In this document: positions 2,137 through 25,245 of the stretch, in pieces
How positions within the stretch are numbered: position 1 is the first letter of the stretch
Layout of the letters: every line of letters starts with the position of its first letter
Assembly: GCF_029227855.1 (NCBI RefSeq)
Contig: NZ_CP074356.1
Strand: one strand, 5' to 3'
Origin: Escherichia coli
GTDB taxonomy: Bacteria > Pseudomonadota > Gammaproteobacteria > Enterobacterales > Enterobacteriaceae
Length of the DNA stretch: 64,000 bases
The notes under the pieces: model-generated
The model's input: only the letters and a program-made list of their open reading frames with translations
Databases searched by the model: none
Told to the model about the DNA's origin: nothing
Position numbers and translations under genes: made by a program

Positions 2137-4362
2137 ATGCGGTGGATCCTGTTCATCCTCTTCTGCCTGCTGGGCGCACCTGCCCACGCGGTATCCATAC
2201 CCGGCGTTACAACCACAACGACAACGGACTCAACGACTGAACCGGCCCCGGAACCGGATATCGAACAAAAAAAAGCGGCCTATGGCGCACTGGCGGATGT
2301 GCTGGATAATGACACCTCGCGTAAAGAGTTGATCGACCAGTTGCGCACCGTCGCCGCTACGCCCCCTGCGGAACCGGTACCAAAGATCGTGCCGCCGACG
2401 CTGGTTGAAGAGCAAACCGTGCTGCAAAAGGTCACCGAAGTCAGCCGCCATTATGGTGAAGCCCTTTCCGCCCGCTTCGGGCAACTTTATCGCAATATCA
2501 CCGGCTCCCCGCATAAGCCGTTTAATCCACAAACCTTCAGCAATGCGCTGACCCATTTTTCAATGTTAGCGGTATTAGTGTTTGGTTTTTACTGGCTGAT
2601 TCGCCTGTGCGCACTTCCGCTGTATCGCAAAATGGGCCAGTGGGCGCGGCAAAAAAATCGTGAGCGCAGTAACTGGCTGCAGCTTCCGGCGATGATTATC
2701 GGGGCGTTTATTATCGACCTGCTGTTACTGGCACTGACATTATTTGTCGGTCAGGTTTTAAGCGACAACCTGAATGCGGGCAGTCGCACCATCGCTTTCC
2801 AACAAAGTTTGTTTCTCAACGCCTTTGCCCTGATTGAATTTTTCAAAGCTGTACTACGCCTGATTTTTTGCCCAAACGTGGCGGAACTGCGCCCGTTCAC
2901 GATTCATGACGAGACCGCCCGTTACTGGAGCCGTCGCCTGAGCTGGTTAAGCAGCCTGATTGGCTATGGCCTGATTGTCGCCGTGCCGATTATCTCTAAT
3001 CAGGTGAATGTACAGATAGGTGCGCTGGCGAACGTCATCATTATGCTGTGCATGACCGTCTGGGCGTTGTACCTGATCTTTCGTAATAAAAAAGAGATTA
3101 CCCAGCATTTGCTCAACTTCGCGGAGCATTCGCTGGCCTTTTTCAGCCTGTTTATCCGCGCCTTTGCGCTGGTGTGGCACTGGCTGGCAAGTGCCTATTT
3201 TATCGTGCTGTTTTTCTTTTCGTTGTTCGATCCGGGCAACAGCCTGAAATTTATGATGGGTGCAACGGTGCGCAGCCTGGCGATTATTGGTATCGCAGCA
3301 TTTGTTTCCGGTATGTTTTCCCGCTGGCTGGCGAAAACCATCACCCTCTCGCCACATACTCAGCGTAACTATCCGGAGCTGCAAAAACGGTTGAATGGCT
3401 GGCTGTCGGCGGCGCTGAAAACGGCGCGTATTCTGACAGTCTGCGTGGCGGTAATGCTGCTGTTGAGCGCATGGGGATTGTTCGATTTCTGGAACTGGCT
3501 GCAAAACGGTGCGGGGCAGAAAACCGTAGATATCCTGATCCGTATCGCACTCATTCTTTTCTTCTCGGCGGTTGGCTGGACAGTGCTCGCCAGTTTGATC
3601 GAAAACCGGCTGGCTTCGGATATTCATGGCCGCCCGCTACCCAGCGCCCGTACGCGTACCCTGCTGACGCTGTTTCGTAACGCGCTGGCGGTGATTATCA
3701 GTACCATCACCATCATGATTGTGTTGTCGGAAATCGGCGTTAATATCGCGCCATTGCTGGCAGGTGCCGGGGCATTAGGTCTGGCTATCTCTTTTGGTTC
3801 GCAAACGCTGGTGAAAGATATTATCACCGGGGTATTTATTCAGTTTGAAAACGGCATGAACACTGGAGATTTGGTTACTATCGGGCCGTTGACCGGTACT
3901 GTGGAACGGATGTCGATTCGCTCCGTGGGCGTGCGTCAGGATACCGGGGCGTATCACATCATTCCGTGGTCTTCGATAACTACCTTTGCTAACTTCGTCC
4001 GCGGCATTGGTTCGGTGGTGGCAAATTACGATGTTGATCGCCATGAAGATGCTGATAAAGCCAATCAGGCACTGAAAGATGCGGTAGCTGAATTGATGGA
4101 AAACGAAGAAATTCGCGGGTTGATTATCGGTGAACCGAACTTTGCCGGGATTGTCGGCTTAAGCAATACCGCATTTACACTGCGTGTTTCGTTCACCACG
4201 CTGCCACTCAAACAGTGGACGGTCCGCTTTGCCCTCGACAGCCAGGTGAAAAAACATTTCGACCTGGCGGGTGTTCGCGCGCCTGTACAGACTTATCAGG
4301 TGCTGCCTGCTCGGGGCGCGGCCCCGGCTGAACCGCTGCCGCCGGGGGAGCCAACGCTTTAA
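2137..4362 (+). CDS. ybiO: MscS-family mechanosensitive channel
   Basis: 750-aa ORF; internal ATG at 2137 preceded by GGAGGA gives the 741-aa YbiO ([18 protein letters not shown] signal-like N-terminus); conserved MscS core in the C-terminal part. Confidence 0.9.
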
Positions 4363-5285
4363 CGCTGGCGATTGACAAAACGGCGGCGCTGCTCGTCGTT
4401 CATAAAGGTCCAGGCAATAAAGCGGCTCTGCTTTTGCCCCTGGGCCATCTCTTTTTTGACCACTTTCACCGCGCCCACGTCCGTCAGAGCACGATACAAC
4501 GGCGGCAAGTTTTCGCCACGAGATACCAGCGAGGTAAACCACATCACCTGCTTCGCGAAGCCTTTGCTCTCTTCAATCATCTTTTTGATAAAAGCGACTT
4601 CACCGCCTTCACACCACAACTCCTGTTGCTGACCACCAAAGTTCAGTGCATCGTCTTTGTTCAGCCCCAGGTTACGGCGTTTACGTTCACTACCTGCCCG
4701 TGCCGCAGCGGCGGAATCGTGGAATGGCGGGTTACACAAGGTCGCGTCGTATTGCTCGTTTTTATGGATGATGCCGTTAAAAATCGCCCCACTCTCTTTT
4801 TGCCGACGCAGACGAATGGCGCGGTTAAGCCCCGGATTAGCACTGATGATCGCCTGCGCACTGCTTAACGCCTGGCTGCTGGTTTCACTACCAGTAAAAC
4901 GCCAGCCATATTCATGTACACCAATCAGCGGGTAAATACAGTTCGCACCAACGCCGATATCCAGAATGCTGGCATTAGCTGGAATTGTTCCGCTTGCTTC
5001 TGCCAGTAAATCGGCAAGGTGATGAATATAATCCGCCCGGCCCGGTACTGGCGGGCAGAGAAAACCGTCGGGGATATCCCAGTTCGCTACGGCGTAAAAA
5101 TGGGCCAGCAACGCCTTATTGAGCGCCTTCACCGCCAGCGGATTGGCAAAGTCTACGCTTTGCTCCCCGGCGGGTGTAAGCGTGAGGAATTGCCTGAGTT
5201 CAGGATTGACCTGACAAAGCGTGGCGAGATCGTAGCGGCTGTGATGACGGTTGCGCGGATGCAACCCCGGTTTCTGGGCGGACAT
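4359..5285 (-). CDS. rlmF: 23S rRNA m6A1618 methyltransferase
   Basis: 308-aa ORF matching RlmF (YbiN) in length and sequence; converges on ybiO with a 4-nt overlap. Confidence 0.9.
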
Positions 5286-14628: not shown

Positions 14629-14910
14629 TTATTCCGCTGGCGGCCATTGCAGAGCGGTATGTAAAACACGCAGTACCGAGAGCGTATCGCCCTCCACTTG
14701 ATAGACAAGCACATAATGCGGCCTGACAACGGCTTCATGTGTACCAGCGACTCGTCCGGCCCGGTACATCTCCGGGCGTTCACAGGCCTGTTCCGCAATG
14801 GCTTCAAATTGATTATCAAGGGCTATTGCCGCTAGCGGATTATCTTTACTGATGTATTCCATGATTTGCTCCCTGTCAGACAGGGACATTGGCTTCCATT
14901 CCAGACGCAT
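14629..14910 (-). CDS. ParE/RelE-superfamily toxin-like protein (93 aa)
   Basis: MRLEW…IAEQACERPEMYRAGRVAGTHEAVVRPHYVLVYQVEGDTLSVLRVLH shows the ParE pattern seen in Caulobacter ParE1 (aligned by eye from memory); start overlaps the upstream gene stop as TAATG. Confidence 0.85.
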   Translation of the reverse strand: MRLEWKPMSLSDREQIMEYISKDNPLAAIALDNQFEAIAEQACERPEMYRAGRVAGTHEAVVRPHYVLVYQVEGDTLSVLRVLHTALQWPPAE

Positions 14911-15350
14911 TAATCCCCCTTCAGCAAGGCTTTTTTACGGGCAGCAAATAGACTTTTGGCCTCTTCATGAGAGAGTGCCGGGCGTGGATCGTCAATGGCG
15001 GCCTGCACCTGCTCTCGAAACCAGGCATCATACGCGGCAGCTTCATGAGCTCGTTTTAATGCCTCAGCCCTGTCTGGTCGGGTCGTTTTCTTCTGACCGT
15101 CCGGGTCGTAATTAGAGGCGTCGACTTCAAACCGGGCAATACCAACATCTTTCAGGTAGTTGACAACCGTTTCCAGCCGTTTGAACAGGCGGATTTGCCG
15201 ACTGCGTTGTGCTGCAAGAGGCCGTTCAGTGTGGCCGTATTTCACGGTCAACGACCAGCCTCCCTGGGTGCCAATAACGTGTGCTGCATCCACTACGCCA
15301 GATTCAACCAGTTTATGTAAGGTTGAGTGATCGATCGTTTCTGGTGCCAT
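14910..15350 (-). CDS. Putative cognate antitoxin / partner protein (146 aa) with unrecognised N-terminal region
   Basis: ORF with AAAGAGG RBS about 10 nt upstream, translationally coupled to the ParE-like gene; only one Met; C-terminal charged helical tail (DAWFREQVQAAIDDPRPALSHEEAKSLFAARKKAL); family not assigned. Confidence 0.6.
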   Translation of the reverse strand: MAPETIDHSTLHKLVESGVVDAAHVIGTQGGWSLTVKYGHTERPLAAQRSRQIRLFKRLETVVNYLKDVGIARFEVDASNYDPDGQKKTTRPDRAEALKRAHEAAAYDAWFREQVQAAIDDPRPALSHEEAKSLFAARKKALLKGD

Positions 15351-20498: not shown

Positions 20499-21624
20499 CC
20501 CGATCCTTTCCTGGCGTCGCGTGCGGGCGCTGTGCGTCAAAGAGACGCGGCAGATCGTTCGCGATCCGAGTAGCTGGCTGATTGCGGTAGTGATCCCGCT
20601 GTTGCTGCTGTTTATTTTTGGTTACGGCATTAACCTCGACTCCAGCAAGCTGCGGGTCGGGATTTTACTGGAACAGCGTAGCGAAGCGGCGCTGGATTTC
20701 ACCCACACCATGACCGGTTCGCCCTACATCGACGCCACCATCAGCGATAACCGTCAGGAACTGATTGCCAAAATGCAGGCGGGGAAAATTCGCGGTCTGG
20801 TGGTTATTCCGGTGGATTTTGCGGAACAGATGGAGCGCGCCAACGCCACCGCACCGATTCAGGTGATCACCGACGGCAGTGAGCCGAATACCGCTAACTT
20901 TGTGCAGGGGTATGTCGAAGGGATCTGGCAGATCTGGCAAATGCAGCGAGCGGAGGACAACGGGCAGACTTTTGAACCGCTTATTGATGTACAAACCCGC
21001 TACTGGTTTAACCCGGCGGCGATTAGCCAGCACTTCATTATCCCCGGTGCGGTGACCATCATCATGACGGTCATCGGCGCGATTCTCACCTCGCTGGTGG
21101 TGGCGCGAGAATGGGAACGCGGCACCATGGAGGCTCTGCTCTCTACGGAGATTACCCGCACGGAACTGCTGCTGTGTAAGCTCATACCCTACTATTTCCT
21201 CGGGATGCTGGCGATGTTGCTGTGTATGCTGGTGTCGGTGTTTATTCTCGGCGTGCCGTATCGCGGGTCGCTGCTGATTCTGTTTTTTATCTCCAGCCTG
21301 TTTTTACTCAGTACCCTGGGGATGGGGCTGCTGATTTCCACGATTACCCGCAACCAGTTCAATGCCGCTCAGGTCGCCCTGAACGCGGCTTTTCTGCCGT
21401 CGATTATGCTTTCCGGCTTTATTTTTCAGATCGACAGTATGCCCGCGGTGATCCGCGCGGTGACATACATTATTCCCGCACGTTATTTCGTCAGCACCCT
21501 GCAAAGCCTGTTCCTCGCCGGGAATATTCCGGTGGTACTGGTGGTGAACGTGCTGTTTTTGATCGCTTCGGCGGTGATGTTTATCGGCCTGACGTGGCTG
21601 AAAACCAAACGTCGGCTGGATTAG
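20491..21624 (+). CDS. ybhS: ABC-2 family transporter permease
   Basis: 377-aa ORF matching YbhS; overlaps the ybhF stop. Confidence 0.9.
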
Positions 21625-21634
21625 GGAGAAGAGC

Positions 21635-22741
21635 ATGTTTCATCGCTTATGGACGTTAATCCGCAAAGAGTTGCAGTCGCTGCTGCGCGAACCGCAAACC
21701 CGCGCAATTCTGATTTTACCCGTGCTGATTCAGGTGATCCTGTTCCCGTTCGCCGCCACGCTGGAAGTGACCAACGCCACCATCGCCATCTACGATGAAG
21801 ATAACGGCGAGCACTCGGTAGAACTTACTCAACGTTTTGCCCGCGCCAGCGCCTTTACCCATGTGCTGCTGCTGAAAAGCCCGCAGGAGATCCGCCCGAC
21901 CATCGACACACAAAAGGCGTTACTACTTGTGCGTTTCCCGGCTGACTTCTCGCGCAAACTGGATACCTTCCAGACCGCGCCGTTGCAGTTGATCCTCGAC
22001 GGGCGTAACTCCAACAGTGCGCAAATTGCCGCCAACTACCTGCAACAGATCGTCAAAAATTATCAGCAGGAGCTGCTGGAAGGAAAACCGAAACCCAACA
22101 ACAGCGAGCTGGTGGTACGCAACTGGTATAACCCGAATCTCGACTACAAATGGTTTGTGGTGCCGTCGCTGATCGCCATGATCACCACTATTGGCGTGAT
22201 GATCGTCACTTCACTTTCTGTTGCCCGCGAACGTGAACAAGGTACGCTCGATCAGTTACTGGTTTCGCCGCTCACCACCTGGCAGATATTCATCGGCAAG
22301 GCCGTACCGGCATTAATTGTCGCCACCTTCCAGGCCACCATTGTGCTGGCGATTGGTATCTGGGCGTATCAAATCCCCTTCGCCGGATCGCTGGCGCTGT
22401 TCTACTTTACGATGGTGATTTACGGTTTATCGCTGGTGGGATTCGGTCTGTTGATTTCATCACTCTGCTCGACACAACAGCAGGCGTTTATCGGCGTGTT
22501 TGTTTTTATGATGCCCGCCATTCTCCTTTCCGGTTACGTTTCGCCGGTGGAAAACATGCCAGTATGGCTGCAAAACCTGACGTGGATTAACCCTATTCGC
22601 CACTTTACGGACATTACCAAGCAGATTTATTTGAAGGATGCGAGTCTGGATATTGTGTGGAATAGTTTGTGGCCGCTACTGGTGATAACGGCCACGACAG
22701 GGTCAGCGGCGTACGCGATGTTTAGACGTAAGGTGATGTAA
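21635..22741 (+). CDS. ybhR: ABC-2 family transporter permease
   Basis: 368-aa ORF matching YbhR. Confidence 0.9.
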
Positions 22742-23113
22742 CTTCTTATCTTTCGCCAGCAAAGACACTACCGCCGGGCCGGCAAGGATTGCCAGCCCTG
22801 CAATTGCCAGCAAAAAGTTGTTTTCCAGTACGCGGGACAACAGCCACAGCACAATCAGCGCTGCGCCAAAATACCAGGTCGTGGTCAGCTCTTCCAGCAC
22901 GTCTGCCACCTCACGCCAGCGTTGCTCGGGGTGGCGCTGAAACACCAGCATCATCACTACCGTGACACAATACAGTGCGCATAATCCCACACCGACGTGA
23001 ACCAGAGTCTTACTCATCCAGCCCACCACCAGCAGCGCCACTACCAGTAAATGCAACATAATCTGCCAGCAACTTAGACCCGTTGCGACACGAACACGTT
23101 GTTGCCACTTCAT
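22703..23113 (-). CDS. ybhQ: Inner membrane protein YbhQ
   Basis: 136-aa hydrophobic ORF; 3' end overlaps ybhR by 39 nt on the opposite strand. Confidence 0.85.
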
Positions 23114-23245
23114 GGCTTCTCTCCTGAAGAATTTATCTCTACTTACTCAGAGTACCGAACTTTACGGAAAATTCCGTAAGACCGCACCTTTTTGTGACGC
23201 CGACTACACTATTTCAATGAGATAAGAGGCAAAGACAGGAAAATT

Positions 23246-24007
23246 ATGCCCGATCAAACACAACAATTTTCGTTCAAGGTGCTCACCATCAATATTCACA
23301 AGGGCTTTACCGCGTTTAACCGACGCTTCATTTTGCCGGAACTTCGCGACGCCGTGCGTACCGTCAGCGCCGATATTGTTTGCCTGCAAGAAGTGATGGG
23401 CGCGCACGAAGTTCATCCGCTGCATGTGGAAAACTGGCCCGATACCTCGCACTACGAGTTTCTCGCCGACACTATGTGGAGCGATTTTGCCTACGGTCGC
23501 AATGCCGTATACCCGGAAGGGCATCACGGCAACGCTGTACTGTCGCGTTATCCCATTGAACATTATGAGAATCGCGATGTTTCGGTCGATGGTGCGGAAA
23601 AGCGCGGCGTGCTCTACTGCCGCATTGTGCCGCCGATGACCGGGAAAGCGATTCATGTGATGTGCGTACATCTGGGCCTGCGTGAGGCGCACCGTCAGGC
23701 GCAGCTTGCGATGCTCGCCGAATGGGTGAATGAGCTACCGGACGGCGAGCCGGTATTGGTGGCGGGTGATTTCAACGACTGGCGGCAAAAAGCTAATCAT
23801 CCGTTAAAAGTGCAGGCCGGACTGGATGAGATTTTTACCCGCGCCCACGGACGCCCGGCGCGCACGTTTCCGGTGCAATTTCCTCTACTACGACTGGACA
23901 GGATCTACGTCAAAAATGCCAGTGCCAGCGCGCCAACCGCGTTGCCGCTGCGGACATGGCGACACCTTTCTGATCATGCCCCTTTAAGTGCGGAGATTCA
24001 TTTATGA
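23246..24007 (+). CDS. ybhP: Endonuclease/exonuclease/phosphatase-family protein
   Basis: 253-aa ORF matching YbhP; overlaps the clsB start. Confidence 0.9.
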
Positions 24008-25245
24008 AATGTAGCTGGCGCGAAGGCAATAAGATCCAGTTGCTGGAAAATGGCGAGCAATATTATCCCGCGGTGTTTAAGGCGATTGGCGAGGCACAAG
24101 AACGTATCATTCTTGAAACGTTTATCTGGTTTGAGGATGACGTCGGCAAACAACTGCATGCGGCACTACTGGCAGCAGCGCAACGCGGGGTAAAAGCGGA
24201 AGTCTTACTTGATGGCTACGGTTCGCCGGATCTCAGCGATGAGTTTGTCAATGAACTGACGGCCGCTGGCGTGGTGTTCCGCTACTACGATCCCCGCCCT
24301 CGCCTTTTTGGTATGCGCACCAATGTGTTTCGCCGGATGCATCGCAAAATTGTGGTGATCGACGCGCGTATCGCCTTTATTGGCGGGCTGAATTACTCCG
24401 CCGAGCATATGTCCAGCTACGGCCCGGAGGCCAAACAGGATTACGCGGTACGCCTTGAAGGGCCGATTGTCGAAGATATTCTGCAATTTGAACTGGAAAA
24501 CCTGCCAGGACAGAGCGCGGCACGACGCTGGTGGCGACGTCATCACAAAGCGGAAGAGAACCGCCAGCCGGGAGAAGCGCAGGTATTGCTGGTCTGGCGC
24601 GATAACGAAGAACATCGCGATGATATCGAACGCCACTATCTGAAAATGCTCACTCAGGCGCGGCGGGAAGTGATTATCGCCAACGCCTACTTCTTCCCCG
24701 GCTATCGATTTTTACACGCCTTGCGTAAAGCGGCACGGCGCGGAGTGCGGATCAAACTGATCATTCAGGGCGAACCGGATATGCCGATTGTCAGAGTCGG
24801 CGCGCGCTTGCTGTATAACTATCTGGTTAAAGGCGGCGTTCAGGTGTTTGAGTACCGCCGCCGCCCGCTCCATGGCAAAGTTGCATTGATGGACGATCAC
24901 TGGGCGACAGTAGGGTCCAGTAATCTCGATCCGCTCAGTTTGTCACTGAATCTCGAAGCAAATGTCATCATCCACGATCGTCATTTTAACCAGACGCTGC
25001 GCGATAATCTGAACGGCATCATCGCCGCAGATTGTCAGCAGGTGGATGAAACCATGCTGCCCAAACGCACCTGGTGGAACCTGACTAAAAGCGTGCTGGC
25101 GTTCCACTTTTTACGCCACTTCCCGGCGCTGGTTGGCTGGCTTCCGGCACACACGCCACGTCTGGCGCAGGTTGACCCGCCCGCTCAGCCGACAATGGAA
25201 ACGCAGGATCGGGTAGAAACTGAAAACACGGGGGTAAAACCCTGA
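24004..25245 (+). CDS. clsB: Cardiolipin synthase B (phospholipase D family)
   Basis: 413 aa with two HxK(x)4D-type motifs (HRKIVVID…, HGKVALMDD…); matches ClsB/YbhO. Confidence 0.92.

Follow-up and report, generated by a model that had tools for sequence, protein, structure and literature searches.

Tail-to-tail overlap of ybhR and ybhQ in Escherichia coli and related genera, with 3'-end signals that likely lie inside the partner gene

The window analysed here is a stretch of 64,000 nt of Escherichia coli DNA (contig NZ_CP074356.1), in which ybhR and ybhQ are transcribed towards each other and share the ends of their coding sequences (Table 1). The ybhR gene, the last gene of cecR-ybhGFSR, encodes an ABC-2 permease (Pfam ABC2_membrane_3 match, 3.8e-51). 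The ybhQ gene encodes a 136-aa inner-membrane protein whose residues 1-132 are covered by a match to PF11076 (2.4e-73). For each gene the shared 39 nt comprise 12 sense codons and the stop codon. As read from the sequence, the two frames are in exact antisense register, i.e. codon position 1 of one gene is opposite position 3 of the other. The 3' end of ybhR reads TCA GCG GCG TAC GCG ATG TTT AGA CGT AAG GTG ATG TAA, and that of ybhQ reads TTA CAT CAC CTT ACG TCT AAA CAT CGC GTA CGC CGC TGA. The ybhR stop codon TAA is thus also the Leu codon TTA of ybhQ, and the ybhQ stop codon TGA is the Ser357 codon TCA of ybhR. Identical coordinates for both genes are found in the RefSeq annotation of strain NRZ14408, which is 100% identical to the window. 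The RefSeq equivalents in MG1655 are 824630..825040 for ybhQ and complement 825002..826108 for ybhR; from this annotation, an MG1655 position y corresponds to window position x = 847743 - y. The stretch is present in 5423 of 5426 complete genomes. When the annotated convergent junctions of the 64-kb window were counted, ybhR-ybhQ was the sole overlap of more than 4 nt among eight.

Table 1. Features at the ybhR-ybhQ junction, in window positions
Feature	Position	Strand	Description
ybhR CDS	21635..22741	+	368 aa, stop TAA at 22739-22741; ORF list, RefSeq annotation, Pfam
ybhQ CDS	22703..23113	-	136 aa, stop TGA at 22705-22703 ('tca' on the + strand); ORF list, RefSeq, Pfam
ybhR-ybhQ tail-to-tail CDS overlap	22703..22741	both	39 nt; sequence and ORF list
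ybhQ 3' UTR	22663..22702	-	ends at the Term-seq 3' end; wholly within ybhR codons 343-356
Palindromic stem-loop	22669..22695	-	GUGGCCGUUAU-CACCA-GUAGCGGCCAC; in the ybhQ 3' UTR, within ybhR codons 345-354
Candidate rut site	22613..22668	-	C-rich, G-poor stretch directly downstream of the hairpin (ybhQ sense)
ybhR transcript run-on into antisense ybhQ	22742..22814	+	up to the reported Rho region at 22814
Lowest synonymous variability in ybhR	22634..22729	+	codons 334-365

Several other features of the window were recorded. A second convergent CDS overlap, of 4 nt, lies at 4361-4364 between ybiO (plus strand, ending at 4364) and rlmF (minus strand, ending at 4361), and this pair, like ybhQ-ybhR, is on the ExcludonFinder list discussed below. 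Between dinG and rhlE (14629-15350, minus strand), a toxin gene of the RelE/StbE family stands beside a small hypothetical gene, which probably encodes its antitoxin. From about 40146 to 64000, adjoining ybhB on the bio-operon side, the window holds phage genes (tail fibre assembly, baseplate, tail chaperone, head) together with acyltransferases; this run looks like a prophage, or a remnant of one, that continues past the window end. Upstream of ybhQ, the divergent ybhQ-ybhP intergenic region (23114-23245) has been reported to be bound by sigma-E in Salmonella ChIP-seq, and a 'ybhQ2' start site has been reported to respond to sigma-E induction in E. coli. The sole promoter-like match in a consensus scan of 21500-24200 is at 23589-23562 (minus strand), outside this intergenic region.

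The original prediction of a 39-nt convergent overlap of the two coding ends was borne out by the ORF list, by the RefSeq annotations of NRZ14408 and MG1655 and by Pfam. An annotation artefact, with one of the two ORFs actually ending earlier, has to be considered here. Many long annotated overlaps are mispredictions that arise from 3' extension (Palleja et al. 2008, PMC2478687), and some E. coli-derived YbhQ sequences do have aberrant ends, for example frameshift variants of 161 aa. However, over about 19 named genera both termini keep their position and most of their sequence, the Pfam YbhQ model reaches residue 132 of 136, the YbhR tail completes the last transmembrane helix and a basic anchor, with an overall conservation of 84-100%, and the ybhQ mRNA extends past the annotated stop codon (Term-seq, PMC7815308). 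We therefore consider such an artefact extremely unlikely: the orthologs contradict an early end for either gene. The Pfam matches and the homologues indicate that both overlapping ORFs are real protein-coding genes with orthologues. As to the aberrant forms, E. coli-like YbhQ variants of 161-165 aa (P0002, P0003, P0018 and others) have a frameshift near the stop codon, after which the frame runs on for about 25 codons. In such variants the overlap would grow to about 114 nt and the YbhR tail would be altered; they come mostly from read-set assemblies and may be errors.

An antisense frame that stays open over 12 codons is unsurprising alone, its chance being about 0.56 by our own estimate, (61/64)^12. 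What exceeds chance is the conservation of the arrangement. We compared 80 loci, one genome per species, and located both stop codons in each. The distance between the stops is exactly 39 nt in 68 of these genomes, which belong to about 19 named genera, these counts being of phylogenetically related species and not of independent events. The genera include Escherichia, Citrobacter, Salmonella, Leclercia, Enterobacter, Kluyvera, Yokenella, Atlantibacter, Buttiauxella, Cedecea, Mangrovibacter, Siccibacter, Trabulsiella, Pluralibacter, Superficieibacter, part of Kosakonia, and others. Four of the 68 have a frameshift or a premature stop codon in either ybhR or ybhQ, and the 39-nt spacing of the stops is unaltered in these. 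The 136-aa length of YbhQ is retained in Citrobacter, Salmonella, Leclercia and Enterobacter. In the genomes with the overlap, the ybhQ stop codon is TGA (TAG in two), and the ybhR stop codon is TAA, TAG or TGA at a constant position. The YbhR orthologues of the 80 loci are 83-100% identical, and the YbhR C-terminal tail, ending in [VI][MA], is almost invariant across genera; the YbhQ tail is more variable than the YbhR tail.

Two other arrangements were found. The overlap is 48 nt in one genome, that of Kosakonia cowanii, and it is absent from 11 of the 80 (three Kosakonia, three Raoultella, two Phytobacter and three others), where the genes are separated by 2-206 nt. In 9 of these 11 genomes YbhQ is longer (142-145 aa) and has a mutually conserved tail, ...AFGLHQGGNAANPxKHR, and in the two Phytobacter it is shorter (132-133 aa). 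A duplication of the overlap as the source of the tail in the non-overlap genomes was considered and rejected: we found no convincing DNA similarity beyond the common ...KHR ending. The Raoultella spacers, of 183-206 nt between ybhQ and ybhR (L071:3436-3618 and L073:3439-3644), contain a direct repeat of about 50 nt and a degenerate second copy of the YbhQ-tail sequence (AFGLHQGGNAAN...), which suggests that a tandem duplication may have taken place at the Raoultella junction. Some of the individual genomes are also worth recording. In Escherichia albertii NBRC 107761, ybhQ has TAG in place of the Trp16 codon TGG (L005:574-576), which marks either a pseudogene or an error in the sequence of this type strain; the junction keeps its 39-nt geometry. 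The ybhR gene is frameshifted in Leclercia adecarboxylata NCTC13032 (L020), Kluyvera genomosp. 3 YDC799 (L034) and Citrobacter amalonaticus AUH_CA_2023_1 (L045), and these are either pseudogenes or assembly errors.

Within the overlap, the synonymous sites of ybhR follow the needs of the opposite frame. The figures given here are raw counts over related species and thus include shared ancestry. The codon for Ser357 is TCA in 64 of 66 overlap genomes and CTA in the other two; either one reads as a stop codon on the opposite strand. Its fourfold-degenerate neighbours Gly356, Thr355 and Thr354 vary freely and use all or most of their synonymous codons. The third position of Ala358 and Ala359 is almost always G, which gives Arg or His in YbhQ, and Phe363 is TTT, giving Lys in YbhQ, in 62 of 66 overlap genomes versus 3 of 11 non-overlap genomes. 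Since these ybhR sites are fixed in overlap genomes where they encode the YbhQ stop, Arg/His and Lys, but vary in non-overlap genomes and at neighbouring codons, both reading frames are under selection inside the overlap, and the YbhQ tail is translated and selected. This is selection on the YbhQ tail, though not on regulation.

The homologues of YbhQ suggest how the tail may have arisen. A search returned 817 homologues at E <= 0.001, and the family is very small, with 66 clusters at 50% identity among 1.84 billion representatives. Distant full-length relatives measure 121-132 aa, and their alignment stops at about residue 123, where the core ends with ...SLLAK(D/E); short unrelated basic tails follow. 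This indicates that the last 12-13 residues of E. coli YbhQ are specific to its lineage and were read off the antisense strand of ybhR. Among seven distant relatives, the gene context was read for two, and ybhQ does not adjoin ybhR in either. Together with the 11 genomes in which the genes are separate, this makes the overlap dispensable. Convergent overlaps usually originate by loss of a spacer or a stop codon followed by extension to the next in-frame stop codon (Palleja et al. 2008, PMC2478687), and the ybhR-ybhQ overlap is consistent with such an origin.

These data bear directly on a neutral explanation, according to which the overlap is a by-product of spacer loss and stop-codon drift with no regulatory role, the hairpin described below being the ordinary 3' end of ybhQ that happens to lie within ybhR. 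That the YbhQ core ends near residue 123, that ybhQ stands apart from ybhR in the two distant homologues whose context was read and in the 11 genomes with another YbhQ tail, and that 3' extension after stop loss is the usual source of convergent overlaps all fit this explanation. Several YbhQ tail residues also simply track synonymous changes in ybhR Arg codons, which give T, A, P or S. However, the constancy of the spacing, exactly 39 nt in 68 of the 80 genomes, and the synonymous constraint on the ybhR codons opposite the YbhQ stop, Arg/His and Lys, are less readily explained by drift, although the latter concerns the tail rather than regulation. We give this neutral explanation an even chance, and neutral compaction and a regulatory role seem about equally likely to us. 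It is compatible with most of the explanation that we prefer, namely an old and genuine overlap with 3'-end signals inside the partner gene, and differs from it on function only.

Where the two transcripts end can be taken in part from published data. By Term-seq, a primary, antisense 3' end of ybhQ was mapped at MG1655 position 825080, i.e. window position 22663 (Adams et al. 2021, PMC7815308, supplementary file 1). This is 40 nt past the ybhQ stop codon and inside ybhR; the entry appears twice in the supplementary file, and the flanking sequence printed for it agrees fully with the window. A search of the curated Term-seq supplementary files of the same study returned no 3' end for ybhR. The study also reports bicyclomycin-sensitive Rho regions on both strands, which are coarse, as one best position is given per 800-nt window on each side. 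One is at 825182 on the MG1655 plus strand (window 22561), antisense to ybhR, with a Rho score of 3.95; it lies about 100 nt beyond the ybhQ 3' end, a distance to be read with the coarse resolution of the bicyclomycin method. The other is at 824929 on the MG1655 minus strand (window 22814), antisense to ybhQ and 73 nt past the ybhR stop codon, with a Rho score of 3.85 and p = 2e-7 (PMC7815308, supplementary file 2). An additional ORF-internal Term-seq 3' end is located about 60 nt into ybhQ (window 23053, minus strand; MG1655 824690), with a Rho score of 0.6 and an intrinsic-terminator score of 4.9, above the study's threshold of 3.0 (PMC7815308). It may be a site of premature termination or attenuation in ybhQ.

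A terminator scan found no intrinsic-terminator-like site at the junction for either gene, and the Rfam 15 covariance models gave no match at E <= 1 on either strand of 21500-24200. We had considered that a spacer supplies a terminator in the non-overlap genomes, and this is not general: a terminator-like site was found in only one of the three spacers tested. With neither intergenic space nor an intrinsic terminator, each transcript must enter the other gene. The original prediction had stated that the overlap leaves no room for terminators and that transcription of each gene runs into the other; the first point agrees with the missing spacer and the terminator scan, and the second is supported by the published ybhQ 3' end inside ybhR and by the Rho regions on both strands. 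With a ybhQ 3' end at 22663, the complementarity of the two mRNAs extends to at least 79 nt (22663-22741) and probably to about 150 nt. The published 3' end (PMC7815308) and an excludon list (PMC12288877) support the overlap of the two transcripts in vivo.

The ybhQ 3' end lies 6 nt after a palindromic stem-loop, with a tail AAACUA followed by UUCC, hence no U-tract. Folding of the 106-nt RNA of 22640-22745 (minus strand) gave -24.4 kcal/mol, with z = -2.65 relative to shuffled sequences. The hairpin is present in 63 of 63 distinct overlap-type sequences, with predicted energies from -13 to -31 kcal/mol. In an alignment of 41 sequences, 90.7% of the cells are paired, versus 23-57% when the 3' partner is slid. 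Compensatory changes occur in two stem pairs, from G-C to A-U four times and from C-G to U-A twice; at six cells in two pairs, this compensation is modest. In the first of these pairs, Thr354Ile in YbhR is accompanied by a matching synonymous change of the Leu345 codon. Two rare ybhR codons are located at the top of the stem. In 48 overlap-type species, Ile351 is encoded by ATA in 77%, versus 4.2% of the other Ile codons of the gene (next highest column 19%), and Leu348 by CTA in 60%, versus 3.3% (next highest column 17%). The normalised synonymous entropy of codons 334-365 in the same species is 0.43 against a gene mean of 0.59, which is the lowest among 338 contiguous blocks of that length. 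Conservation of the hairpin is in part due to conservation of the protein sequence WPLLVIAAT that it encodes. These comparative patterns argue that the stem-loop at the ybhQ 3' end is under selection.

On the far side of the hairpin, the positions +31 to +90 after the ybhQ stop codon contain 30% C and 8% G, versus 25% and 28% for the whole antisense strand of ybhR. The steady-state 3' ends of Rho-terminated E. coli mRNAs have such an organization: a stable stem-loop, which protects the mRNA against 3' exonucleases, lacks a U-tract and is closely followed by a rut site (Dar and Sorek 2018, PMC6061677). Like these, ybhQ has a precise end a few nt after a stem, no U-tract and a C-rich tract downstream; bicyclomycin-sensitive read-through may be a further likeness, given the published Rho region, of coarse resolution, about 100 nt beyond the end. 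The stem-loop and C-rich tract of ybhQ match the architecture of a protective hairpin plus rut site. Unlike in the cases of Dar and Sorek, the stem-loop and the putative rut site of ybhQ are within a CDS on the opposite strand, and the stem is partly held by rare codons. For ybhR, the run-on region has no significant structure (z = +0.54), and the synonymous variability of ybhQ is not reduced there (codons 90-124 average 0.60). An unstructured and unconstrained region of this kind fits diffuse, Rho-dependent termination of ybhR.

The hairpin could alternatively be a bidirectional intrinsic terminator or a programmed site of polymerase collision that ends both transcripts. Its stem can form on both strands, it appears to be under selection, and convergent E. 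coli gene pairs can position head-on collisions of RNA polymerases by a nascent stem-loop (bioRxiv 10.1101/2022.10.23.513370). On the other hand, the hairpin is 44 nt upstream of the ybhR stop codon, so that ybhR transcripts ending there would be non-stop mRNAs. The stem is followed by no U-tract on either strand, the scan found no terminator-like site there, and on both strands read-through is reported to be bicyclomycin-sensitive further downstream. We regard this role of the hairpin as very unlikely.

The ybhQ-ybhR pair is among the 165 convergent excludons of MG1655 listed by ExcludonFinder (Sanmartin et al. 2025, PMC12288877), which were seen in 50% or more of 58 RNA-seq samples, although a pair with a CDS overlap will count as an excludon nearly by default once both of its genes are expressed. 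As in the other convergent excludons of this list, the transcripts overlap and termination signals are inside the partner's transcription unit. Most of the listed pairs overlap in their 3' UTRs only, with a mean intergenic distance of 95 nt (PMC12288877), whereas ybhQ and ybhR overlap in their CDSs, which makes the overlap of their transcripts unavoidable rather than conditional. Cleavage of the duplex by RNase III has been proposed for excludons in general. Another related case is mscL-arfA, in which the 3' UTR of one gene is likewise complementary to the 3' CDS of its convergent neighbour, an arrangement enriched in Enterobacteriaceae (PMC10070815). There, complementarity to the arfA 3' CDS is described for the mscL 3' UTR only (+1 to +64), whereas ybhQ and ybhR share 39 nt of CDS. 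An antisense effect on expression has been demonstrated experimentally for mscL-arfA (PMC10070815), whereas ybhQ-ybhR is known here from sequence and transcript ends. The overlap also resembles the convergent overlaps of Rogozin et al. 2002, as these are summarised by Palleja et al. 2008 (PMC2478687), in being tail to tail and shared by more than two genomes. Its 39 nt fall short of the 60 nt from which an overlap counts as 'long' in that work, and the long convergent overlaps accepted there are conserved mostly in very close species only (PMC2478687), in contrast to ybhR-ybhQ, which is found across many genera. The pair thus belongs to three kinds already described: conserved convergent overlapping genes, convergent excludons, and Rho-dependent 3' ends with protective hairpins. 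The overlap as annotated in E. coli, the place of the pair on the excludon list, and the 3' end and Rho regions in published tables were already known. What is new here is the location of the ybhQ 3' end just after a conserved hairpin embedded in ybhR codons.

Taken together, we favour as the likely explanation a genuine and old tail-to-tail overlap in which the 3'-end signals of each gene are inside its partner, with a hairpin end and Rho for ybhQ and Rho for ybhR. The last 12 codons of ybhQ lie opposite the last 12 codons of ybhR and in exact register with them and, because no spacer separates the genes, each transcript has its end signals within the partner gene. The ybhQ mRNA runs 40 nt past its stop codon and has its steady-state end just after the stem-loop in ybhR codons 345-354. 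Rho would most likely terminate ybhQ transcription on the C-rich stretch beyond the hairpin, and exonucleases would then trim the mRNA back to the hairpin. The ybhR transcript, i.e. that of cecR-ybhGFSR, would have no structured end and be stopped diffusely by Rho about 70 nt into antisense ybhQ. In the structural sense, the pair is a convergent excludon with at least 79 complementary nt. By analogy with other excludons and with mscL-arfA, the antisense interference raised in the original prediction, whether through polymerase collision or RNase III cutting of the duplex, is plausible. We take the ybhGFSR operon to be repressed by CecR. Convergent traffic from the ybhR side would then be low unless the operon is induced, and any interference would be conditional. 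A stronger proposal is that the overlap and the hairpin form a selected, bidirectional control module, in which the lifting of CecR repression would make ybhGFSR transcription collide with that of ybhQ, or form an RNA duplex with the ybhQ mRNA, at a defined site and would thereby lead to reciprocal expression of the pump and YbhQ. This is unlikely in our opinion; if true, it would imply a functional link between the ybhGFSR pump and the membrane protein YbhQ.

For the biology of E. coli the finding matters little beyond housekeeping, and it confirms both annotated gene ends. Because signals for the ybhQ 3' end are within the ybhR CDS, synonymous recoding of the 3' end of ybhR, or its deletion, could affect ybhQ, and changes to ybhQ could likewise affect ybhR. 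Designs of knockouts and interpretations of ybhR or ybhQ mutants should take this into account. The hairpin maintained by rare codons is a neat illustration rather than a new principle. The pair represents a clean and conserved example of selection on RNA structure and of two reading frames sharing the same bases, and it is a candidate for asking whether an obligatory overlap of transcripts has regulatory consequences.
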